Assembly (NCBI GenBank): GCA_965216315.1
Contig: CBDCFN010000015.1
Location: forward strand, 256,001-320,000
Direction: 5' to 3'
Length of the DNA: 64,000 bases
Origin: a bacterium
GTDB lineage: Bacteria; UBA10199; 2-02-FULL-50-16; JAJFLM01
Shown: piece after piece, positions 3,135-47,567 of the stretch
Layout of the letters: each line of letters opens with the position of its first letter
Numbering within the stretch: the stretch's first letter is position 1
Translations under genes and position numbers: made by a program
The notes under the pieces: generated by a model
The model's input: the letters and a program-made list of their open reading frames with translations, nothing else
The model's database searches: none
What the model was told of the DNA's origin: nothing

Positions 3135-4583
3135 ATGGTGTGCTCTGAACGTAAATTAGAACTGGGGACCTGTTTCGATTCCAGGCGGGAACTCTCCGCC
3201 GACGAGATCGAAGTCAAGGGTCTGGAGGCGTTGGATTATCAACCCTCGGTGGTTCACGACTTCGATCATGATGGCTTGGCCGACTCCGTTTCATTCACGC
3301 AGGCGACCTTAATATATGGCCAATTAGACTATGCCAACGGCCGCGAACAATACAATCTCTCCCCCTTAGAGCCCTTCACGCTGGATGTATTTCTCCGCAG
3401 TGACGCCAGCACGGCAGGCTCACGTTTCGCGCTGCGACCGGCCACCATCGCCGTCCACGATGTCACCGGTGATGGCCAAGCGGACCTCATCGTCAGAGAA
3501 GAAGAGAGAACGGGCAACTTTCGCTATTTCATCTATGAGAATCAGAACCCGTTCAAGGCGCTACCTGCTTACGAGGGACCGACACTTCATGCGCTGCGCG
3601 CCACGGATGACAAGGGTGAGCGCGCCAGCGAGCTCTTAACAAATCGCCAATTCGAACCGAATATCGAACAAGACGCTGTTATTGACCTGTTGGGATTTCA
3701 TCCCGGCACCCTCGGCCTCATCCACTACTATCAATTCAATGACGGTCCGTTCTTAGGCGTCCACGCAGGAGATCCGATCGTTCTCCATCGCTCCTTTCGC
3801 TACCGGTATCCCCTCAGCGTAGAAGATAATTTTACGGTTCGCCTGTTCAATGAAGAAGGGGATGTCGTCCAGAGCTTTACCGTCGAACAAGACATCGAAG
3901 ACCATGTCGAATGGTATCGATTAGAGAGCGGCCCCGCCTTTGCTATCTATCACGTTCCTGGCCGCGAGCCACAGCTCCGTTTCGATGACAACACGGCAGC
4001 AATGGTTGCCCCGGTCTTAGATCAACTCGATGGATTAACAGCGCTGTGGGGTTCGGTAATGGTTGATGGAACCGTGCAAAAAGTGGTGTTCATTGATGAT
4101 GAACACTCGAGCCTGCATGGCACCGGAGATCAACTCGAATATAATACCGTTTTTATCGTCCCAATCCCCGATGATCACGAAACGAATGCCTTGGTTGTCC
4201 TCCATGAGGCCGCCCACAATGTGGAACTCACTTGGTTAAGAGATCGTAATGGCGGTGTCCTGCAGGAAGTCTGGCAGGAACTCATTGACAGCGACTCCAT
4301 GGCCTTTCAATTGCTTAACGAAAGGTATTTCTTGCGACTGGGAAAGGGAGGGCATTCCCAAGACAGTGCCTATGAGCTTTTCGCCACCTTGACCGTCGAC
4401 CTCCTACAAGGCCCTGAGGCCCTAGAATCAGCCCTTAGCCGGTGGGATGCCTCTCACTCGCCCCGACAACAGAGACTCCTACGCCGTGATTTAAGGAAAC
4501 TCTTCGATGCTTATCAGGGGGTACTCAACGAACAGGCCCCACATTCGAAAGATTTTCTCCGACCTTACTACAGGGTCCTCTAG
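3135..4583 (+). CDS. Hypothetical protein with FG-GAP-like loops and C-terminal HExxH zincin-like motif
   Basis: HDFDHDGLAD, HDVTGDGQADL; LHEAAHNVE plus downstream YELFA; start 3135 follows GAGGTGG (ORF track starts 3099). Confidence 0.6.
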   Translation: MVCSERKLELGTCFDSRRELSADEIEVKGLEALDYQPSVVHDFDHDGLADSVSFTQATLIYGQLDYANGREQYNLSPLEPFTLDVFLRSDASTAGSRFALRPATIAVHDVTGDGQADLIVREEERTGNFRYFIYENQNPFKALPAYEGPTLHALRATDDKGERASELLTNRQFEPNIEQDAVIDLLGFHPGTLGLIHYYQFNDGPFLGVHAGDPIVLHRSFRYRYPLSVEDNFTVRLFNEEGDVVQSFTVEQDIEDHVEWYRLESGPAFAIYHVPGREPQLRFDDNTAAMVAPVLDQLDGLTALWGSVMVDGTVQKVVFIDDEHSSLHGTGDQLEYNTVFIVPIPDDHETNALVVLHEAAHNVELTWLRDRNGGVLQEVWQELIDSDSMAFQLLNERYFLRLGKGGHSQDSAYELFATLTVDLLQGPEALESALSRWDASHSPRQQRLLRRDLRKLFDAYQGVLNEQAPHSKDFLRPYYRVL

Positions 4584-5368
4584 TTCAAAAAGACCGATAG
4601 ACGCGCAAATTGCTCAAGACTCAAATTCTCCGCACGGGATTTTGGATCAATTCCAATCTCATCACAGATCTGCTGCCACTTCGCGTCATCTTTTAAGCCT
4701 AAACAATTGCGCAACATCTTGCGCCGGGTCGCAAAGGCCTGTCTCACAACGCGCTTGAAGGCCGCTTCTTCGTCTATCTCGACACGGGGTCCAGTCGTCA
4801 GTTTCATTCGGACCACGGCGGAATCGACTTTGGGTGGCGGCGTGAAGGCCTGAGGGCCCACCTTCATGACGATGGCGGAATCACTGTAGAGCTGCGTCAG
4901 GACGGAGAGCACCCCGTAGTCCTTGCCACCCGGCGTCGCCACCAAGCGTTCGGCGACTTCTTTCTGGACCATCAAGGTTAAGGTCGAAAAGAGTTCGCGG
5001 TATTCGATGAGTCGAAAGATAATTTCCGTGCTGACGGAATAGGGAAGATTGGCGACGACTTTAATCTTCCCCTCCCTCGACGGGAGGGAAGTTTTCAAGT
5101 CAACATTCAAAAAATCATCTGCTACGATCTCAACACATTCATTACCCGTATACTTTTCAGCTAAATGCGCCGCCAATTCCTTATCTTTTTCGACTGCGAT
5201 AACGCGTGCCCCAATTTTTAGGAGCGAATCCGTGAGAATACCGCGGCCTGGCCCGATCTCAAGAACCGGATCATTGGCCGCCACCCCGGCCAGCTTGACG
5301 ATCTTGTCAGTAATACTCGGATTGGTTAGAAAGTGCTGTCCGTAGGCACGACGCCGCTGCGAGGTCAT
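4580..5368 (-). CDS. rsmA: 16S rRNA m6,2A1518/1519 dimethyltransferase
   Basis: GQHFL, VLEIGPGRG, VVANLPY, FTPPPKVDS. Confidence 0.97.
   Translation of the reverse strand: MTSQRRRAYGQHFLTNPSITDKIVKLAGVAANDPVLEIGPGRGILTDSLLKIGARVIAVEKDKELAAHLAEKYTGNECVEIVADDFLNVDLKTSLPSREGKIKVVANLPYSVSTEIIFRLIEYRELFSTLTLMVQKEVAERLVATPGGKDYGVLSVLTQLYSDSAIVMKVGPQAFTPPPKVDSAVVRMKLTTGPRVEIDEEAAFKRVVRQAFATRRKMLRNCLGLKDDAKWQQICDEIGIDPKSRAENLSLEQFARLSVFLN
5066..5091. repeat. Short CCTCCC-loop-GGGAGG palindrome embedded in rsmA
   Basis: cttcccctccctcgacgggagggaag; same stem type as larger repeats in the window. Confidence 0.5.
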
Positions 5369-26680: not shown

Positions 26681-26751
26681 CTCGGGGACGTGGACTCGAA
26701 CCACGATCGACGGCGTCAAAGGCCGCTGTCCTACCATTAGACGATCCCCGA
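26681..26751 (-). tRNA. tRNA-Gln(TTG); CCA not encoded
   Basis: TCGGGGA acceptor stem, anticodon arm GCGGC-CTTTGAC-GCCGT, T arm CGTGG-TTCGAGT-CCACG; classic ispE-tRNA-Gln-prs position. Confidence 0.95.
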
Positions 26752-39634: not shown

Positions 39635-42600
39635 TTACAAACCGTACTTCACAATCGCGGCTCGAATCGCCTCCGTGTCCCGTGCAATGCCCAGTTGTTC
39701 CATTTTCGTATAAAGATGCCGCCGTGAAATGCCCAAAGCCTCGGCAGCATGCCCCCGATGAAAACCATTATCACGGATCGCCAGCAAGATCTTCGCCGCC
39801 TCCGGATCGACTGGAGCGGTCGCTTTAGCCTTGGCCTTGCTCTTCACTTGGGCACTTCGTTTAGCGGCACTCCCCGATGCCAGCGCCTGCTTGAACTGCA
39901 TGGAATTCGGGACAATGACATTATCTTCCGCAAAGAGAACCGCCGTTTCGAGCGTATTTTGCAGTTCGCGAATATTCCCCGGCCAGTCATAGTTCATTAG
40001 TAAAGCCAAAGTCATCGGGTCCAATTGCGCGACTTCGCTTTTCTGACGTTCAGCTATTTGTTTGAGAAAATGATCCGCGAGTAACGGCAAGTCTTCCATG
40101 CGGTCACGCAAGGGTGGCAACGTCACTGTCACGCCATTGAGACGATAAAACAGGTCTTCACGAAATTCGCCACTCTCGACCAGCTCATGAAGATCCCGAT
40201 TACTGGCTGAAACCACCCTGACATCGACCTTAATGAGCTGATTCGAACCCAACGGACGAATCTCTCCTTCCTGTAAAAAGCGCAGCAACTTCGCCTGGAG
40301 GTTGAGGCTCATATCGGCAATCTCATCGAGAAAAACGGTCCCGCCATCCGCATAATGCAACATGCCTTTTTTATCGGATGTCGCATGCGTAAACGCGCCC
40401 TTCTTATGACCGAATAGTTCCGATTCCATCAGATTCTCGGGCAAAGCTGAGCAGTTCTCCGTTACGAAGGGCTTATTTTTTCGCAAGCTATTAAAGTGCA
40501 GGGCCCGTGCAATCGACTCCTTACCGGTCCCCGATTCACCATGAATCCACACCGGGATCTTCGCCTCCGTGATGCGATCCACCATGGCCAGCACTTGGAC
40601 CATCTTGGGAGAACGCCCGATAATGTCCGAATACTTATTTTGGAGCACGGCCCGAGATTCTTTAAGTTCCCGCGCCATCAACTCGACCTGTGAATTTTGA
40701 TCCGTAACCTGCTCAGTGAGATCGGCATTCTGAGCCTGAAGGGAAGCAATCATGGCTTCTTTCTGGAGCGCAATCGCGGCAATCCCCACAAAGGTTTTTA
40801 AGGCCTCTAAGACAGCTCCTTCAAACAATCCCTGTTCAAAGCGATGATCCAAATAAAAAACACCGAGTATCCCGTCGCGGCTCTTCACGGGAAGAGCGAC
40901 GATCGATTTGAGCTGGTGAAGTTGTGTGCTTTTGGAATCACGGAAGCGCACATCTTCCAGGGCGTTATCCGTGATAACTTCTTCACCGGTTTGCAGCGCG
41001 CGCTTAACCGCCGAAAGGCTAAAGGCAAAGGCATCCGTCTCCAACTCTTCCTTATGGATATTGCGCGCGGCCGCCAAAGTGTATCCCGGCAACGGACCGG
41101 AATTCTGATCCGACCGAACGAGGAGAAAACCTGTCTCGGCCTGGGCTAGCTGCATCGCCGCCTCCATCAAGTCCTCTAAAACGGACTCCATGTTTTCTTC
41201 CATAAGCAACTTTTGATTGAGGTCGGACAGACCTTCCAAGATGTTTTTGAGTTCCATTGTATTCTCCACTGACGGTTCATTGGCATCGGAATCCGCTGCG
41301 ACCCACCTGCGGTAATCGTAGCGATCGACAAAGGATACCTGCAATCCCAATGAAAGTTCTTGATAAATTGTTGTTAATAGGCGGCGCACCGCATCACTCT
41401 CTCGAGTGCGACTCAGCCAGCGCAAAGCCAGCTCCCGATTCCAATAATGTTCCAAATCATCCGTATCAGGCTTGGCATCGGCCAATTGTAAATAGCGACC
41501 GTCACGCCATTCACCGATCAGGTCGCGGACCTCGCTGGCATAAACCGCTGCCGGGGCATAATCCGCTTCTAATCCCGCCAACTCGACAACGAGTTGATCG
41601 GCGACCTTAAAATTACCGACCGCCGCTTCGGCAATAGCACTGTGCCGCAGGTTTTCCGCGAGATCATTCGGGTTAGCGAGTAAGCGCAGGATCTCTTGGG
41701 CCTGCCGGAGCCGGCGCAAGGCCTCGTCAAGTTGACCGCGTTTGCGCGCCAGCACCCCTTGGTTGGTCCAAACGGAGGCTAAGAAAAGACCGTTCTTAAG
41801 TTGCCGCGCCAAATTCTCGGCGCGGGCTTGGGTGGCTTCGGCATCATCAACCGCGCCGTGGGCCTGGGCCAGGAGTCCGCGCTGTAAGAGCGTGGAAAAT
41901 TCTCCTTCGGTAAATCCCGCCTCATGATACAGCTGTTCCGCTTGTTGAAGGTGCTTGAGACTTGTCGCCCAGTCCCTCTCGTGCGCATCCGCTACGGCCA
42001 GGTTGCGGTAAATCTCGGCCCGATGGCGTCCCGCCGCCTCACAGAGGTCTAAGGCCCGATGAAAATGGGTACGGGCTGTCTCGGAATCGCCACGATCCAA
42101 GGCATTCATCGCCAACAGGGTGTGGGCGCGGGTTGCGAACGGCCGTTGTTCCACCTCAGGGCCCGCACTTTCAAGACAACGCTCAAGACGTTGCGTTGAC
42201 TCCGGGATGTCACCGAGATTGCGGTAATTTAAACCCGTCGTGAACCAATACTTTACTTGGCGCTCGCGTTGACTCTCATCAGTGGCATCGAGCTGCAACC
42301 ATTGCTCACAGTATTCGAGGGCCTCAGGATAACGACCGAGCGCATTAAGCAAATTAATCTTCAGCCGCAACAACCGTGATTGTTCAGCAGAATCCTTGAT
42401 GTAGGGAAAGGCGGCGTTGAGCAGCTCCAACCCTTCTTCATGCCGGCCACTTTCCATCATCGCCTGCCCCGTCACGAGCATACCGGCTGCTAGTTCCGTT
42501 TCGTCTCTTAAGCACAGGGCGTGATGCAGTCGCTGCCGGTTGGGATAGGGATTCGCTCGCAGTGCTTTGAGCCAGGCCTGGTGCCATGTGCGCTGTTCAC

Positions 42601-44305
42601 TCGCCTTCATTTCTTGCAGCAGGCCTTCGGCCAAGAACTCAAAGGCCAGTTGATAGCTATGGCGTGTCGGATCGTTGCGGATGAGATCACGCTCCAACAA
42701 AGACTGCAGGGACACATGAAAATCATGGATAGACCGCGGGGCGAGAACACTCAGGAGATCCCGTTGCGAAACCGGCGCCTGGGTCACGGCCAACGCATAA
42801 AGAATGCGCCGCTCTTTTGCAGTAACATGCCCCAAGCGCAGCAACAGCATATCTTGGAGGGACGAGAGCTGACTCAATGCGCGGTGGGCCTCGGGACTCA
42901 TACGTCCGCCGCGAATCGCCTTTTCTTCCTGCAAGATACCGACAACCTCCACCAGCATAAGCGGATTGCCCCCGGTTTTTTCAACGAGCTCCCGAACAAT
43001 GGCCTTTTCGAGATCATCACCCAATGCCGCGGTCAAAAATGACTGGCTCGTTGCCTCATCCAGGTTGTTCAGCTGAATTTCTTGAACATTTTCTTGCTTA
43101 ATAAAATAAGCGAAAAGGTCGCGCGCTTTTTGACTGAGACCGTCATCATTCCACTCGAGCACGATGAGGCGGCCCTGAAGGGGCACGCCCCCCTGGTTGA
43201 GCGAAAGCAAAGTCCCTAATTGGCTTTCAGGTAATTGCTCGAGGTCACGGAAGACATAGACCTGACGGGTTCCGTTGCCAACGCCTAAGTCATGGAGGCC
43301 GTTTCTTAATTCCAGCGCCGGAAATTCTTTGAGCGATACCTTCATCAAGGCGCATTCCACTTGAAACTCTCGCAAAAACCGGCTCTTGCCGACTCCGGTG
43401 ATGCCGTGAAGACAAAAGAGCTGGGAGCTCTCGTCTATTTGCTTCAATGCAGACATGATTTGATCAAAACCACCCTCGGCCCCATACATCTGTGCTGCGT
43501 GATACTCCTGACGAGTCGGTATAGACTCTTCCTTCTTTTCACCCAAGGCCGCCAAGACTTCCGCAGCCTGTGCGAACCGTTGATTCAGCTCCAGCGTGAT
43601 CATCCGATCGATGACGCGACAGGGACGCGGATAGGCCTTGCAGAGTTCCGGGGTTTGCTCAGCTAATAATGCCGGTTGCTTCGTGAGTAGCTCTCGCAAG
43701 TCACGGCAATCGCCACGTGGGTGTTGGCCTGACAAGGCTTCATAAAAAACCGTTCCCAATGAAAAGAGATCGCTCGCCGGCCTATTCAGGCCGCTAAAAC
43801 GTTCCGGAGCCACATAAGGAATCGTTGCCGCCTCCAATGGACGACTTTCAGTCGCGCGGCTTGCCAGTCCAAAATCCAACAGGCGTACATGTCCCGAATC
43901 ATCGATGAGTATGTTTTGTGGAGAAAGGTCCCCATGCAGAATCTCTTGCGCATGTAAGTAATCGAGTGCATCCAGACACTCTTTAAACCAGGTGAAAATA
44001 AGCTCAGGTTCCTGCCCGCGGGCCGCGCTCAAGATGTCACGCCCCTCGACATATTCCATCCAGTAGCAGGCCCCTTTATCTTCGCCAAAAATGGCCGCAC
44101 TCTCCCCCGTCACACCTAGAAAAGAGATGAGGTGGGTGTGCTGCAGCCGGCAAAGAAAGCGGACTTCTGCTTCGATGGACTCAGTATTCAGCGCGCGTTT
44201 GACGACCACCGCTTGCCCTTGCGGCGTATGCGCCAGATAGACCTCTCCCATCCCCCCGGCACCGAGCGGTCGGATCAACTCCCATCCTGATGCAACAGCC
44301 ACCAT
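39635..44305 (-). CDS. Hybrid Ser/Thr kinase-P-loop NTPase-TPR-GAF-sigma54 enhancer-binding protein (AAA+ and Fis-type HTH)
   Basis: LGAGGMGEV, HGDLSPQN, DFG, APE; GITGVGKS; TPR helices; GAF; GESGTGKE, GAFTHA, FLDEI, FREDLFYRL, WPGNIREL; C-terminal HTH. Confidence 0.93.
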   Translation of the reverse strand: MVAVASGWELIRPLGAGGMGEVYLAHTPQGQAVVVKRALNTESIEAEVRFLCRLQHTHLISFLGVTGESAAIFGEDKGACYWMEYVEGRDILSAARGQEPELIFTWFKECLDALDYLHAQEILHGDLSPQNILIDDSGHVRLLDFGLASRATESRPLEAATIPYVAPERFSGLNRPASDLFSLGTVFYEALSGQHPRGDCRDLRELLTKQPALLAEQTPELCKAYPRPCRVIDRMITLELNQRFAQAAEVLAALGEKKEESIPTRQEYHAAQMYGAEGGFDQIMSALKQIDESSQLFCLHGITGVGKSRFLREFQVECALMKVSLKEFPALELRNGLHDLGVGNGTRQVYVFRDLEQLPESQLGTLLSLNQGGVPLQGRLIVLEWNDDGLSQKARDLFAYFIKQENVQEIQLNNLDEATSQSFLTAALGDDLEKAIVRELVEKTGGNPLMLVEVVGILQEEKAIRGGRMSPEAHRALSQLSSLQDMLLLRLGHVTAKERRILYALAVTQAPVSQRDLLSVLAPRSIHDFHVSLQSLLERDLIRNDPTRHSYQLAFEFLAEGLLQEMKASEQRTWHQAWLKALRANPYPNRQRLHHALCLRDETELAAGMLVTGQAMMESGRHEEGLELLNAAFPYIKDSAEQSRLLRLKINLLNALGRYPEALEYCEQWLQLDATDESQRERQVKYWFTTGLNYRNLGDIPESTQRLERCLESAGPEVEQRPFATRAHTLLAMNALDRGDSETARTHFHRALDLCEAAGRHRAEIYRNLAVADAHERDWATSLKHLQQAEQLYHEAGFTEGEFSTLLQRGLLAQAHGAVDDAEATQARAENLARQLKNGLFLASVWTNQGVLARKRGQLDEALRRLRQAQEILRLLANPNDLAENLRHSAIAEAAVGNFKVADQLVVELAGLEADYAPAAVYASEVRDLIGEWRDGRYLQLADAKPDTDDLEHYWNRELALRWLSRTRESDAVRRLLTTIYQELSLGLQVSFVDRYDYRRWVAADSDANEPSVENTMELKNILEGLSDLNQKLLMEENMESVLEDLMEAAMQLAQAETGFLLVRSDQNSGPLPGYTLAAARNIHKEELETDAFAFSLSAVKRALQTGEEVITDNALEDVRFRDSKSTQLHQLKSIVALPVKSRDGILGVFYLDHRFEQGLFEGAVLEALKTFVGIAAIALQKEAMIASLQAQNADLTEQVTDQNSQVELMARELKESRAVLQNKYSDIIGRSPKMVQVLAMVDRITEAKIPVWIHGESGTGKESIARALHFNSLRKNKPFVTENCSALPENLMESELFGHKKGAFTHATSDKKGMLHYADGGTVFLDEIADMSLNLQAKLLRFLQEGEIRPLGSNQLIKVDVRVVSASNRDLHELVESGEFREDLFYRLNGVTVTLPPLRDRMEDLPLLADHFLKQIAERQKSEVAQLDPMTLALLMNYDWPGNIRELQNTLETAVLFAEDNVIVPNSMQFKQALASGSAAKRSAQVKSKAKAKATAPVDPEAAKILLAIRDNGFHRGHAAEALGISRRHLYTKMEQLGIARDTEAIRAAIVKYGL

Positions 44306-44331
44306 CGTGTTTCCGCGTCCCGTTGTGATGG

Positions 44332-44360
44332 TAGCACAAACTGTGACAAGATAGCACAAA
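44332..44360. promoter_or_regulatory. Candidate upstream activator (enhancer) sites
   Basis: TAGCACAAA direct repeat, 20-nt period; first copy in quasi-palindrome TAGCACAAACTGTGACA; 100-130 nt upstream of the predicted +1. Confidence 0.5.
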
Positions 44361-44433
44361 TTGACCCTCACAAGCTGTGCCAGTAACCGCCGGTAATTCG
44401 TTATTTTTTCAATAATTTCAAGGCAGTTCAGCT

Positions 44434-44449
44434 TGGCACACGACTTGCT
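44434..44449 (+). promoter_or_regulatory. Sigma54 (-24/-12) promoter
   Basis: TGGCAC-ACGAC-TTGCT, exact TGGCAC-N5-TTGCW; AT-rich tract just upstream; predicted +1 ~44460. Confidence 0.85.
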
Positions 44450-44459
44450 CTATAGACTC

Positions 44460-44705
44460 GCAACAGATCACACACACACAATGGTAAGCCGGCGGCAACG
44501 CCAAGATTAGTCTGGGGGGCTACCAGACACCCGCGTTACCGCCGGCACTTCCATTGAATTTTTTTGACTCGTGATCTTCTCCTCCGGCCTCGGCCGAGCC
44601 GGGAGACCGCACAGCACCCACGGTCCCCGGCACATTATTTTCCTTGGCTCTCGGTTCTGCCGGTCGACCGACCGCACCCCGGTCGTCCGGTAAACCGGAG
44701 CGAGG
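44460..44705 (+). ncRNA. Candidate sigma54-driven structured RNA/leader with three related hairpins
   Basis: Hairpins 44479-44556 (followed by T7), 44598-44631, 44642-44705; each has a GCCGG stem and a CACCC at or in the loop. Confidence 0.5.
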
Positions 44706-44727
44706 ACAACTAAAAAGGAGCCTCGTC

Positions 44728-45069
44728 ATGGAAATGGAAGAAGTCAGTCAAGTTACTTTGTTATCACATTACACCGAAGGGCGTGTCTCGCTCCAAGATG
44801 TCTGCGATCGACTCGGCATCCATCGCACCACCTTGTGGCGCAAACTCCAGCGGCTCAAGAAAGAAGGGCGGGAAGGCCTCGTTCACAAACTGAAGGGACG
44901 TCCTTCCAACAATGCGCGCCCCAAGGCAATTCAACAAGCGATCCGGGAATTATGGACAGAGAATTATTCTCGCACTGACATGAACATCACGCAATTCTAC
45001 CAACAAGTTGTCCGCGAGCTCGCACCGACATTGAGCTACTCAACCGTCTTGCGCTGGTTAAAAAAGTAA
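44728..45069 (+). CDS. Stand-alone HTH protein resembling the N-terminal DNA-binding region of ISNCY/IS481-like transposases; no DDE domain
   Basis: AAGGAG RBS; RLGIHRTTLWRKLQRLKKEGREGLVHKLKGRPSN...LSYSTVLRWLKK then stop. Confidence 0.75.
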   Translation: MEMEEVSQVTLLSHYTEGRVSLQDVCDRLGIHRTTLWRKLQRLKKEGREGLVHKLKGRPSNNARPKAIQQAIRELWTENYSRTDMNITQFYQQVVRELAPTLSYSTVLRWLKK

Positions 45070-45072
45070 ATC

Positions 45073-45117
45073 GTTGCAATTTTACTAAATCGCAACTCTG
45101 TGTGACGCGCACCGATA
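45073..45117 (+). promoter_or_regulatory. GTTGC-N14-GCAAC palindrome overlapping GCAAC-N15-CCGATA motif
   Basis: GTTGC 45073-45077, GCAAC 45092-45096, CCGATA 45112-45117. Confidence 0.55.
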
Positions 45118-45155
45118 ACAGGAATGTAAACTTTTTAACAAAAAGGAATTCAATT

Positions 45156-45623
45156 ATGGCTAAACAAGTCTCAAGTAAAAAAGTCTCCCAATGGATGGCC
45201 GATGCCCTGCGCGCGAATCCCAACACGCGACCGGAATGGTTAATCAAACAAGTCGCGATCAGTTGCAAGAGCAGTGAAAGAGAGTGTTTGAGTGCCTATC
45301 AAGAAGTTCGCGACAAGGTTGCAGAATACCGTGCGGCGCCGATAACTAAAAATTACACTGTGCGTTTGCAAATGGAACCGCCGACATCATCATCCCCTGA
45401 GCCTGCCGAAGGACAGCCCCTTGTCGTCAAAGAAGTCACCGTCGTCGGTGATCCCAACAATGCATTCCAGCACATTCAGCCTTTTCTGACACCAACGCCG
45501 GCGGCACCAACAAACAACGAACTCCCAAAGAATCCTTTTAAAATTGAATTAATGCCGCTGGAAACACCGACATCGGCACCAAACGCGTCTCTGCCGCCAC
45601 TTTCGACCGATCTTAATTTCTAA
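45156..45623 (+). CDS. Hypothetical protein, Pro/Thr-rich C-terminal half
   Basis: AAGGA RBS; 155-aa ORF; no recognised domain. Confidence 0.6.
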   Translation: MAKQVSSKKVSQWMADALRANPNTRPEWLIKQVAISCKSSERECLSAYQEVRDKVAEYRAAPITKNYTVRLQMEPPTSSSPEPAEGQPLVVKEVTVVGDPNNAFQHIQPFLTPTPAAPTNNELPKNPFKIELMPLETPTSAPNASLPPLSTDLNF

Positions 45624-45696
45624 TCACACTTAGTTTGGTTGCGTTTTTAATGAACGCAATCAAGTGGTTGTAATTTAACTTCATGGTCGTTTTCGG

Positions 45697-45722
45697 ACAA
45701 CCTCACCTCAATCACACCGATA
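45697..45722 (+). promoter_or_regulatory. Candidate promoter ACAAC-N15-CCGATA
   Basis: ACAAC 45697-45701, CCGATA 45717-45722. Confidence 0.55.
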
Positions 45723-45757
45723 AGTTTTTGTAAGACGCATCACTAACAGCGAAAGGA

Positions 45758-46381
45758 ATGATCATGGCGGATAAAGTTTCTGCGGGAGTTCAAGTCAACA
45801 AAGAAGGCGTCGTCATCACGACTGACGAGGGAACTGTCGAATCGAGAGTCGATGACAGAGAAAAATCTTGGGCCATGTCGGCGGATGTCATGGGTGGCAT
45901 CGGTCACGGAATTTATGTCGGACCCGGCTTTGATGCCTCGTACTGTGCACGGCTGAGTCGCAAACTCTGTTTGAATATGGGTCTCGGCATGTTCGGAAGT
46001 TTTGGTTCAGGACCGGTCGAACGAACCAAACATGCTGATGGGTCGATTTCGGATAGCGGTTCTGAATTGATGATGGTCCCCAACCTCCATGCCGGCGTCG
46101 TCTACCAATTGTCGCGTGCTATTGGTCTCGGTGGTCAGGCCCGCCTCGGCTATGCCCGCATCAATGGCCATTATGAAAATTTTGAACCGAACCGTTACAG
46201 TTACAAGGAATCCTACGTCGACACGGGGCTCTATCTCGAAGGAGCGGTGCGCTTATTAATCAATCTTTCAAGTTCCACCGGCCTCCACACTGATTTCGGC
46301 GTGAATTCATTCCCAGCCGCCGGTCCCGAAGGACGGCGCGGCGGCTTCATGGGCCGCATCGGGGGCCTATTCCGTTTTTAA
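45758..46381 (+). CDS. Putative small beta-barrel protein lacking a signal peptide
   Basis: About 8 amphipathic Gly/aromatic strands; C-terminal GGLFRF; start probably 45764. Confidence 0.6.
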   Translation: MIMADKVSAGVQVNKEGVVITTDEGTVESRVDDREKSWAMSADVMGGIGHGIYVGPGFDASYCARLSRKLCLNMGLGMFGSFGSGPVERTKHADGSISDSGSELMMVPNLHAGVVYQLSRAIGLGGQARLGYARINGHYENFEPNRYSYKESYVDTGLYLEGAVRLLINLSSSTGLHTDFGVNSFPAAGPEGRRGGFMGRIGGLFRF

Positions 46382-46382
46382 G

Positions 46383-47567
46383 TTATCCCTTGCTTTGAGG
46401 AGGTGTGAGCGGAAAGACCGATTCGTCGGGTAAGAAAATATCGTCGAGCTGCAGAAAACGCAGAAACTCTTCGCCGGTGACGTCTATGCCGAGGTCAATG
46501 CAATTGGCCTGCGGCACGCCGAGGCCGGTGGCGGTACTGGCGCATACAGCTTCGAAGGTCGTGGGAGGAATGGGTCCGGTAACTCCCGGTACAATATCAT
46601 CTGGCTCATCGAACTCGACCGTACTGTCGACTGAACCACTCCAAAAGGGATGAGCATCACGAAATCGGCCGATATACTTGATGAACTCTTGTTGAGGCAT
46701 TTCGGATGAAGAAAGGTCTTCGGTGAATTTGATGGTTTTGATCGCTTCGTGCTCCGTTGGACCTCGTTGCGTTAACTCGGTATGAGCCGAAAGTTCCTCA
46801 TTGAGCCGAACAAAGACAGTTGAAATGATATCTGCGGGGTCAACGAAATCATAGCTCCCTGCTATTTCAGTCAGCAAATTCACGAAACCACTGCCTTGTT
46901 CGCGGGCGCGGAATTGGCCGCTACCGCGTTCGCTCTCATCGGTCTCGGTATTGGGATCATCGCGAATCGCGAGACGGTCAAAGCGGCCGGCGACAAAGCG
47001 TTCAAAGTTCCCGTCACCATCGGGATCGCGCCAGATACGGTAACACACCGGTTTCAATTCTTCGACGGCCGCTTGGGTCGGACACTCGGCGAGGTCACAA
47101 CCGACCGGACACGTGCATCCGCTGCACCCTTGATTATCAAAGTCTGCAAAATCGAATTTAAGATGATCCTCGGGTGATTTTGTCTTGCCCTCAAAGCTCT
47201 TCACCTGTGGACTGACGGGAATATCCACCTCATCAAAAATACGGATCAGCACCTCAACAGCTTGCAGATTGATATCTACCACTATCGGACCCAACGCGAT
47301 AAAAAAGCTGAAGTCCTCCCCGACTTGCGCAAGGAGCGTTTGTAGTTCCTCGCCACTACTCGACAGGCTACTGCTATCAATACTGAGACTCTCAGGAAAC
47401 CGTAGGAAAGACGGAAGTTCGGCTGGTGGCGCCGGCGGCGTGGCAGGGATCGTCCCTTCACCACCTCCATCGCCGGGGACAGGAGCACTCGAGGAGGCAC
47501 AAGCCCCGAGCCCAATCAGACTCGTGAGCAGCCCCAAGAACAGGAGAATCCTTAGCCTTTTATGCAT
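46383..47567 (-). CDS. Hypothetical acidic lipoprotein
   Basis: MHKRLR + hydrophobic stretch + LGAC lipobox; CSGCTCPVGC cluster. Confidence 0.7.
   Translation of the reverse strand: MHKRLRILLFLGLLTSLIGLGACASSSAPVPGDGGGEGTIPATPPAPPAELPSFLRFPESLSIDSSSLSSSGEELQTLLAQVGEDFSFFIALGPIVVDINLQAVEVLIRIFDEVDIPVSPQVKSFEGKTKSPEDHLKFDFADFDNQGCSGCTCPVGCDLAECPTQAAVEELKPVCYRIWRDPDGDGNFERFVAGRFDRLAIRDDPNTETDESERGSGQFRAREQGSGFVNLLTEIAGSYDFVDPADIISTVFVRLNEELSAHTELTQRGPTEHEAIKTIKFTEDLSSSEMPQQEFIKYIGRFRDAHPFWSGSVDSTVEFDEPDDIVPGVTGPIPPTTFEAVCASTATGLGVPQANCIDLGIDVTGEEFLRFLQLDDIFLPDESVFPLTPPQSKG

Follow-up and report, generated by a model that had tools for sequence, protein, structure and literature searches.

What lies in the 268 nt that separate a predicted sigma-54 promoter from the first gene behind it is the question raised by one locus in a 64,000-nt stretch of bacterial DNA (contig CBDCFN010000015.1, positions 256,001 to 320,000; hereafter the window, with positions counted from its first letter). 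The stretch comes from a 2.96-Mb genome of an uncultured lineage (G000, the source genome), and the first gene behind the promoter encodes a helix-turn-helix (HTH) protein. We refer to the segment from the predicted +1 to the start of the HTH gene (44460-44727, + strand) as the leader. A preliminary description of the locus had proposed that it specifies a ~105-nt terminated small RNA (sRNA), a multi-hairpin leader of the HTH gene, or both. Our analysis favors these options with the weight on the leader, since the HTH gene has no other promoter-like site and is sigma-54 driven in relatives. On sequence evidence, the RNA element is a real and uncatalogued feature that is conserved in one relative. 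We consider the chances about even that it is a cis-acting leader of the HTH operon, in which a conserved terminator-type module would shed a ~105-nt RNA and lineage-specific hairpins would offer a recognition motif and an anti-Shine-Dalgarno sequence.

The leader is structured beyond chance in folding models. The + strand from 44460 to 44730 folded at -122 kcal/mol compared with -85.1 +/- 4.8 kcal/mol for 200 dinucleotide shuffles (z -7.7), none of which folded as well, and this excess is far beyond that of a GC-rich spacer. Hairpin 1 together with its closing helix P1 (Table 1) gave a z of -5.9 by itself. This hairpin contains the inner stem GTCTGG/CCAGAC at 44509-14 / 44522-27, and the T7 tract that had been reported to follow it is present, so that the terminator-like appearance noted earlier holds and, as described below, recurs in one near relative. 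The orientation of hairpin 1 and its U run fits transcription of the + strand only. We searched two sets of sigma-54 sites in the source genome, one stringent (101 sites) and one relaxed (139 sites). At 8 of the 139 relaxed sites, the next 160 nt contain a hairpin that leads into a T run, and that of the leader is by far the strongest of them (-41.2 kcal/mol).

Conservation of hairpin 1 came from a covariance model, R1, that was built from window positions 44462-44580 alone and thus from one sequence. We searched R1 with filters off against both strands of 19 related loci (58 kb), and its best match fell in the leader of G001, a near relative of the same family, exactly behind the sigma-54 promoter of that leader (18.1 bits, E 0.065). 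The next best match in the 58 kb scored 12.8 bits, and in another 29 kb, taken from paralogous loci of the source genome, noise reached at most 9.7 bits. G001 is the only near relative, with an HTH protein of 56-58% identity, and its operon runs from a sigma-54 promoter through a leader and a 118-aa open reading frame (ORF) to the HTH gene and further genes that include a homologue of the 155-aa gene found second in the window operon. The G001 leader forms an uninterrupted 15-bp GC-rich stem followed by AUUUUUAUU, which is the canonical form of a terminator.

The helices of the two leaders differ in ways that preserve pairing. P1 reads GAUCAC/GUGAUC in the window and GCUCAC/GUGAGC in G001, with one double-sided change and five pairs the same. 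P2 reads CAAUGG/CCAUUG in the window and GUUGGG/UUCAAC in G001, with four double-sided changes and two one-sided changes from G-C to G-U. P3 reads GCCGGCGG/CCGCCGGC in the window and GCCGGUGG/CCACCGGC in G001, with one double-sided change and seven pairs the same. Over the 20 pairs of P1 to P3, we counted 6 double-sided changes, 2 one-sided changes, and no broken pairs, in an alignment of two sequences that was fitted to the structure in the R1 register. These counts were made by script because MAFFT failed to place the two leaders in structural register; the alignment made with the model (A4) included the minus strand of the window. The two G-U pairs of P2 in G001 are possible only in a + strand RNA. 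As read from the sequences, these data provide good but thin evidence that hairpin 1 and P1 are conserved. Because the 3' strand of P1 lies beyond the U run, its conservation suggests that selection acts on a read-through RNA and is not confined to a terminated short RNA. The structural conservation in relatives that the preliminary description had made a test of its proposal was thus observed for hairpin 1, through compensatory changes in one relative, and failed to appear for hairpins 2 and 3, which were not seen in the G001 leader.

An alternative is that the short RNA itself is the main product, a stand-alone and trans-acting sRNA of ~105 nt (44460 to ~44566) with a CA-rich, single-stranded seed at its 5' end and with hairpin 1 and U7 as its terminator. 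It would be produced under the neighboring bacterial enhancer-binding protein, in the manner of Pxr, Qrr, GlmY/Z, and CrcZ, and the HTH operon would be expressed by leak-through alone. An unpaired 5' end ahead of a terminator hairpin is consistent with such an sRNA, and the same genome contains a cleaner case behind the sigma-54 site at C16:1864402(-), where a 35-nt CA-rich stretch precedes a canonical terminator. Furthermore, 3 of the 34 genomic runs of at least four CA repeats follow closely after sigma-54 promoters on the transcribed strand, with two more in antisense orientation, and sigma-54-dependent noncoding RNAs beside activators are documented (PMC4641369, PMC5568312). However, the 3' strand of P1 keeps its pairing through a compensatory change beyond the U run, which is sensible only for a read-through RNA. 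In addition, the HTH gene lacks another promoter-like site and is directly sigma-54 driven in relatives, the CA run is not kept in G001, which has AACUCCCC there, and no target was identified. Considering both sides, we regard an sRNA as main product as unlikely.

The strand of the transcript also had to be considered. The minus strand of the same region folded well (-132.2 kcal/mol, z -5.9), and the fold energies on both strands agree with the earlier remarks that hairpin 3 favors the + strand (-31.2 kcal/mol versus -28.8 kcal/mol on the minus strand) and hairpin 1 the minus strand. Because the hairpins split between strands, the G-U pairs of the source genome alone do not decide the strand. 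If the structures belonged to a minus-strand transcript, they would form a long 5' leader of the mRNA of the divergent kinase-activator gene, and hairpins 1 and 2 indeed gain G-U pairs on that strand. However, the only sigma-70-like site on the minus strand that a simple promoter scan of 44000-46600 returned lies at 45106-45079, behind the HTH gene; read on that strand, the T run would be an A run that precedes the stem. Furthermore, G001 has no divergent kinase gene upstream of the conserved hairpin, and the G-U pairs of the G001 hairpin are compatible with the + strand alone. A minus-strand origin is hardly credible in light of these observations. On the + strand, the same scan was negative for sigma-70-like sites over its whole range.

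We also considered whether the leader encodes protein or is a remnant of something that did. No coding potential was found, as all three + strand frames are interrupted by stops, and no leader peptide was found either, the sole ATG-initiated ORF having 9 codons and no Shine-Dalgarno (SD) sequence. The minus strand contains two ORFs, of 69 and 56 aa, for which neither the genome nor the fetched loci provided a relative. Without a function, the leader would represent the relic of a rearrangement, a tandem duplication, or DNA that decayed after the loss or relocation of an upstream small ORF, and its folds would have arisen by happenstance. What occupies the interval from promoter to HTH gene differs among lineages: the 118-aa ORF in G001, an ORF of ~145 aa at two metagenome loci (L044 and L045), or leaders of ~15-25 nt. 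A homologue of the G001 118-aa ORF is present elsewhere in the source genome (C16), behind a near-identical promoter, and hairpins 2 and 3 are unique to this genome. Against a relic stand the folding excess, which is too great for a GC-rich spacer, and the retention of hairpin 1 with compensatory changes at a distance where the HTH proteins are only 56-58% identical. In addition, the leader holds no trace of the 118-aa ORF, whose tblastn matches in the source genome were confined to C16. Of the 93 class genomes, G000 and G001 alone contain members of the family of this ORF. We judge a functionless leader improbable.

Table 1. Positions of the features of the leader and its surroundings in the window
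Feature	Position	Strand	Basis or remarks
Activator gene, Ser/Thr kinase - STAND/AAA_16 - TPR - GAF - sigma-54 AAA+ - HTH_8	39635..44371	-	Pfam
Candidate enhancer (upstream activating sequence), direct repeat TAGCACAAA x2	44332-40 and 44352-60		~-100 and -80 from promoter; putative function
Predicted sigma-54 promoter, -24 TGGCAC / -12 TTGCT	44434..44449, extended TTGCTCTATAG to 44455	+	predicted +1 near G44460
Helix P1, GAUCAC (44466-71) / GUGAUC (44571-76)	44466..44576	+	minimum free energy (MFE) and centroid structures; encloses hairpin 1 and U run
(CA)6 run, unpaired 5' part of transcript	44469..44480	+	sequence; mean unpaired probability 0.84 over 44473-44479
Hairpin 1	44479..44558	+	-41.2 kcal/mol; P2 CAAUGG/CCAUUG, P3 GCCGGCGG/CCGCCGGC, AACGC/GCGUU, GUCUGG/CCAGAC
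U7 tract	44559..44565	+	2 bases after P2; terminator-like site ~100-106 nt from predicted +1
CUCCU, predicted partner of SD AGGAG (44716-44720)	44579..44583	+	pair probabilities 0.83-0.93
Small hairpin CGGC-CUCG-GCCG	44585..44596	+	-8.1 kcal/mol
Hairpin 2, GCCGGG-A-GACCG / CGGUC-CCCGGC, 11-nt loop with GCACCCA (44614-44620)	44598..44631	+	-21.5 kcal/mol
Hairpin 3, outer stem + GCCGG-U-CGACCG / CGGUCG-U-CCGGU, loop GCACCC (44674-44679)	44648..44700	+	-31.2 kcal/mol
SD sequence AGGAG	44716..44720	+	7 nt before ATG of HTH gene
HTH gene, 113 aa (P0001), stand-alone winged-helix/homeodomain-like	44728..45069	+	Pfam HTH_29, HTH_23, HTH_32
Second operon gene, 155 aa, no family	45156..45623	+	homologue in G001 operon, 37% identity, 4e-19
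Third same-strand gene, 207 aa, no family	45758..46381	+	ORF list and family scans

The promoter ahead of the leader had been described as a consensus sigma-54 promoter beside a gene for a bacterial enhancer-binding protein (bEBP), and both parts of that description are borne out. TGGCAC at 44434-44439 and TTGCT at 44445-44449, five bases apart on the + strand (TGGCACacgacTTGCT), are found where they had been reported and, as read from the sequence, match the sigma-54 consensus exactly with GG at -24 and GC at -12 in exact spacing. The form TGGCA[CT]-N5-TTGC[ATC] accounts for the 101 stringent sites genome-wide, compared with ~8.5 expected by our own arithmetic with equal base frequencies, and the extension TTGCTCTATAG is common to many of the 101, including this promoter. 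Over 28 nt, the promoter is 89% identical to another at G000:C16:2021663. With its exact match including the extended consensus, the divergent bEBP gene, and sigma-54 sites before homologues of the HTH gene, we consider it a credible and genuine-looking sigma-54 promoter. An A/T-rich stretch (44400-44425) lies between the TAGCACAAA repeats and the promoter. Repeats of this kind with an A/T-rich stretch are the usual enhancer-plus-bend layout, and other promoters linked to kinase-fused bEBPs in the source genome have upstream repeats and an A/T-rich stretch of their own.

The palindromes might also act as DNA, either as an operator or roadblock for the HTH protein or the bEBP, or through an effect of the (CA)n run on promoter melting. 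Consistent with such DNA sites, the 3' arm of hairpin 1 (44535-44551) has a direct copy matching at 14 of 17 positions (44383-44399), ~40 nt upstream of the promoter; runs of (CA)n and (TG)n are found a short way downstream of sigma-54 promoters in either orientation; and hairpins 1 and 2 fold no better on the + strand. However, the G001 stem maintains its pairing by double changes and contains two G-U pairs that are valid only in a + strand RNA, and both genomes retain the U run that follows the stem. Furthermore, the spacing of the P1 half-sites is ~100 bp in the window and 70 bp in G001, and the upstream copy was not seen in G001 by eye and has a chance of ~0.08 of arising in 380 nt by our own arithmetic. 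Action as DNA therefore appears very improbable.

Hairpins 2 and 3, which together with hairpin 1 had been described as three related hairpins, are related to each other, whereas hairpin 1 is a different element. They share the pattern CCGG-N-GACCG-loop-CGGTC-N-CCGG, which is found only here in the genome, and by sequence comparison they are a lineage-specific duplicate. Hairpin 2 occupies the coordinates first assigned to it (44598-44631), and we refined those of hairpin 3 from 44642-44705 to 44648-44700. The (CA)n stretch and the CACCC motifs at 44528, 44615, and 44675 from the preliminary description are all present. The loop motifs of hairpin 2 (0.99-1.0) and hairpin 3 (0.99) are predicted to be unpaired. 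In hairpin 1, ACACCC lies in an internal loop, and its CACCC is about half unpaired (0.48) versus ~1.0 in hairpins 2 and 3. The repeated motif of the leader consists of two clear copies of GCACCC(A) and one weak copy; by eye, without a count, we saw neither a run of GGA loops, GGA being the CsrA-binding motif of sponge RNAs such as CsrB and RsmZ, nor A-rich AANAANAA-type motifs in the leader.

The GCACCCA motif also occurs behind other promoters. Among the leaders of 11 sigma-54 promoters tied to kinase-fused bEBPs, it is present in 5, the HTH leader and four others, compared with 0.076 expected from its genome frequency. This set was defined after the motif had been noticed in other long sigma-54 leaders, and it includes one promoter (C16:2021666), 89% identical to the one studied here, that was added because its gene is fused into the G001 operon rather than for adjacency. 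GCACCCA is the only 7-mer in at least 4 of these 11 leaders. By eye, the copies extend to a consensus of [CA][AG]GCACCCA[AC]C. Five of six GCACCC instances are predicted to be 0.80-0.99 unpaired and one 0.30, where the mean over the leaders is 0.42. Two of the operons linked to kinase-fused bEBPs contain additional copies in intergenic spacers (C15:132335 and C16:726334). In one of these operons, UUCAGCACCCAACC[AC]UACA occurs twice, in the leader at C15:131591 and in the internal spacer at C15:132335. Across the genome, intergenic GCACCCA is only mildly raised (34 copies versus 23 expected). The arrangement of a sigma-54 promoter, 23-53 nt, and GCACCCA occurs three times in the source genome and no more than once in each of 40 relatives, which include both members of the family, so the motif is specific to the source genome.

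These observations raise the possibility that the leader is a decoy or multisite target of a shared factor, an RNA-binding protein or an sRNA carrying UGGGUGC, that recognizes unpaired GCACCC(A). With its two or three copies, the leader would titrate this factor or come under its control jointly with the other leaders driven by kinase-fused bEBPs. This possibility overlaps with the reading of the leader as a cis-acting element. The enrichment in leaders tied to kinase-fused bEBPs, the predicted accessibility of all but one instance, and the additional intergenic copies within two of the same operons all point toward such a factor. Weighing on the other side are the order in which motif and test set were arrived at, with one promoter of the 11 added by gene link; the mostly paired sixth instance; the low overall intergenic excess; and the lack of conservation of the promoter-to-motif pattern in the 40 relatives. 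In addition, by eye we found no complementary RNA and no candidate binding protein for GCACCCA. As to the CsrB-type sponging raised in the preliminary description, a motif shared among leaders is all that was observed. We consider a shared factor unlikely, and the leader would be sponge-like only if a partner for GCACCC(A) exists. In the most far-reaching model, a lineage-specific posttranscriptional layer, added to an expanded kinase-bEBP/sigma-54 network, would employ an RNA-binding factor that reads unpaired [CA][AG]GCACCCA[AC]C in at least five leaders tied to kinase-fused bEBPs, the HTH leader would be a regulated attenuator and a decoy coupling the pathways of these activators, and hairpin 1 would represent a new class of sigma-54-linked attenuator; we regard this model as quite unlikely.

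For the cis-acting leader, which remains our preferred reading, we propose the following sequence of events, in which transcription, termination, control of read-through, and factor binding are all inferred. The HTH gene and the genes of 155 and 207 aa would form one operon transcribed from the sigma-54 promoter at 44434-44449, which the divergent kinase-TPR-GAF enhancer-binding protein would switch on. The first ~105 nt, with a CA-rich unpaired 5' end, a GC-rich hairpin, and U7, would act as an intrinsic terminator or attenuator, such that a fraction of transcripts would stop at U7 to give the short RNA and the remainder would read through. Termination may be only partially efficient because the U run follows 2 nt after the weak 6-bp P2. 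In the read-through RNA, P1 would close around the terminator, and the duplicated hairpins 2 and 3 would display the GCACCC(A) loops and bring CUCCU next to the SD sequence. A factor recognizing the loops could then set translation or stability of the HTH message.

Several observations weigh against the cis-acting leader. Two of its three hairpins are more stable on the minus strand (-41.2 kcal/mol on the + strand versus -46.9 kcal/mol for hairpin 1, and -21.5 kcal/mol versus -24.0 kcal/mol for hairpin 2). Conservation rests on one relative and on the fitted two-sequence alignment described above; R1 gave no match at E <= 10 in the whole genomes of G001, G002, and G003; and the G001 leader is separated from its HTH gene by the 118-aa ORF and showed no counterpart of hairpins 2 and 3. 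In an ensemble that included coding bases, the 5' strand of P1 was mostly unpaired (0.92). At the terminator-like site, the weak P2 helix of 6 bp and internal loops separate the U run from the GC-rich stem, and a simple terminator scanner made no call at hairpin 1 and U7. We found no antiterminator alternative in the MFE structure, in the centroid structure, or by eye, and regulated read-through is thus without a visible mechanism. The SD sequence was no more open or closed than in shuffled leaders (46th percentile), for which reason its pairing with CUCCU is weak evidence. The +1, the 3' end, and read-through are themselves predictions.

The arrangement resembles known systems in part. Sigma-54 promoters are normally regarded as tightly off without an activator. 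Most known regulatory RNAs directly behind such promoters are stand-alone sRNAs (Qrr, GlmY/Z, CrcZ, and Pxr), and Qrr, GlmY/Z, and CrcZ are sigma-54-dependent RNAs next to activators. In Pseudomonas, CrcZ and CrcY are stand-alone decoys of ~400 nt for Hfq/Crc that depend on CbrB and sigma-54 and carry five or six A-rich AANAANAA motifs. The leader is like CrcZ in that a sigma-54 RNA, here a predicted one, under an adjacent bEBP has several copies of a short unpaired motif, which in CrcZ titrates a protein, but it carries GCACCC(A) in two loops plus one weak copy within a 5' leader, whereas the CrcZ motifs are A-rich. The leader is like an attenuator in its order of promoter, terminator-like hairpin with U run, and first gene, whose expression needs read-through. 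In contrast to classical attenuators, it has a sigma-54-type promoter and lacks a leader peptide, an antiterminator, and a region of aptamer size; there is no room for an aptamer because only ~20 nt precede the stem.

Pxr of Myxococcus xanthus is described as an RNA of ~108 nt with a predicted sigma-54 promoter and a predicted triple stem-loop, encoded downstream of the activator gene nla19 and occurring as a long form and a processed short form (PMC5568312). Compared by description, the two share a predicted sigma-54 promoter beside an activator gene and predicted multiple stem-loops. However, Pxr as described there is a stand-alone gene downstream of its activator, whereas the RNA studied here is divergent from the activator gene and runs into an operon. 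A reconstruction of the sigma-54 regulome of Desulfovibrio vulgaris lists four noncoding RNAs under the control of enhancer-binding proteins, which the accessible portion of that report does not describe as leaders with terminators (PMC4641369), again as a comparison by description. The theme of a sigma-54 RNA beside its activator is known, and the present element differs as a probable terminator-bearing leader before an operon; as judged by scans against Rfam, it is a member of none of these systems. A conserved terminator module between a sigma-54 promoter and an operon would add a second checkpoint to a stringent switch, here in an uncultured lineage whose 18 enhancer-binding proteins include 11 with a fused Ser/Thr kinase. 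If real, the shared GCACCCA loop motif would point to an undescribed RNA-binding regulator. Practical value is limited, as the organism is known from assemblies only and the element is shared by a single relative.

The activator gene divergent from the leader promoter belongs to this set of kinase fusions. Its ORF encodes 1578 aa from a GTG at 44371, with a likelier start at an ATG at 44305 that gives MVAVASGWELIRPLGAGGMGEVYL. Pfam matches of the protein include Sigma54_activat (5.8e-69), Pkinase (5.7e-32), GAF_2, TPR_12, and HTH_8 (Fis-type HTH). Of the 11 kinase-fused bEBP genes in the source genome, 10 have a stringent sigma-54 site no more than 6.5 kb away, in several cases immediately upstream and divergent. 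By eye, the target operons of the activators encode mostly predicted lipoproteins or proteins without a family. A literature search on kinase-fused bEBPs surfaced nothing specific among the entries listed.

The HTH protein resembles the N terminus of ISNCY/IS630/IS481 transposases, with an NCBIfam ISNCY N-terminal match of 3e-15 that is below the cutoff, and the start of its gene is conserved among homologues. Its family was found in 8 of 93 genomes of the class and in metagenome contigs. Among 29 distinct loci with HTH homologues (tblastn E <= 1e-6), 14 have a sigma-54-type site within 700 nt upstream and 15 do not, and 10 of the 14 sites are at -38 to -52 from the start codon. Four loci (L009, L047, L044, and L045) combine such a site with a divergent homologous kinase-activator gene. 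Because of these 14 and 4 loci, the link between kinase-fused bEBP, sigma-54 promoter, and HTH gene is, as judged from gene neighborhoods, older than this genome. What is special to this HTH locus is the 268-nt leader. Scans of metagenome and genome contigs with single proteins yielded no closer relatives, and in alignment-based scans all HTH homologues except that of the G001 locus were at most 47% identical. At L044 and L045, both on metagenome contigs, the sigma-54 promoter is followed by the ~145-aa ORF, which is Gly rich or coiled-coil-like, and then by the HTH gene. At the end of the HTH gene in the window (45058-45069), the sequence ...TTA AAA AAG TAA places an in-phase A_AAA_AAG slippery heptamer immediately ahead of the stop codon, and from this point the -1 frame stays open into the following ORF (45063-45623). 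We rejected a programmed -1 frameshift: as the following ORF is equipped with an AAGGAA and an ATG of its own (45156), the arrangement is probably a coincidence.

The leader was also compared with catalogued RNAs and repeats. The view that it belongs to no known RNA family is upheld by covariance model scans against Rfam, which gave no match near threshold at the leader: a permissive scan of 43800-45400 with Rfam 15 returned as its best hits miRNA and snoRNA models at 8.7-18.5 bits (E 3.8-9.7), far below gathering thresholds, and a scan at gathering thresholds of the window and four loci returned nothing but a tRNA in L126 and another in the window, away from the leader. The tRNA gene of the window is on the minus strand at 26681-26751 (RF00005, 62.2 bits). 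We rejected a genome-wide repeat, either a miniature inverted-repeat transposable element or a repetitive extragenic palindrome, because BLAST found the locus once, the pattern of hairpins 2 and 3 is unique, and R1 found only itself. A DNA similarity search in 40 relatives gave three short and weak matches only, and the match in the source genome itself covered the promoter.

Other sigma-54 sites of the source genome are followed by candidate RNAs. At C16:1864402(-) (L126, ~4310-4402), the 35-nt CA-rich stretch behind the site is unpaired and the terminator reads AAAAAAGCCUCGC...GCGAGGCUUUUUU, with no ORF after it. Rfam detected nothing at L126 except the nearby tRNA, and by its sequence this site is a cleaner candidate for a sigma-54-dependent small RNA. 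At C16:1241921 and 1242220 (+) (L127, ~4420-4800), two sigma-54 promoters lie 300 nt apart just downstream of a kinase-TPR-GAF-bEBP gene. The strong hairpins behind them share AUGGCUGG[CU]GGC, and the first has a CA-rich 5' end and GCACCCA. Homology of these two hairpins to hairpin 1 found no support, as R1 returned noise only (at most 9.7 bits). At C16:1045638 (+), a sigma-54 site precedes a hairpin of -25.6 kcal/mol ending at a T run at +143, possibly a small RNA, and no ORF of at least 60 aa preceded by an SD sequence was found within 1 kb. The runs of at least four CA repeats in sense orientation, within ~40 nt behind sigma-54 promoters, are those at C15:300469, C16:1241957, and C16:1864362. 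Antisense runs, which give UG in the transcripts, are found at C15:484369 and C16:1853456. These CA and UG runs could be seed-target pairs or reflect a property at the DNA level.

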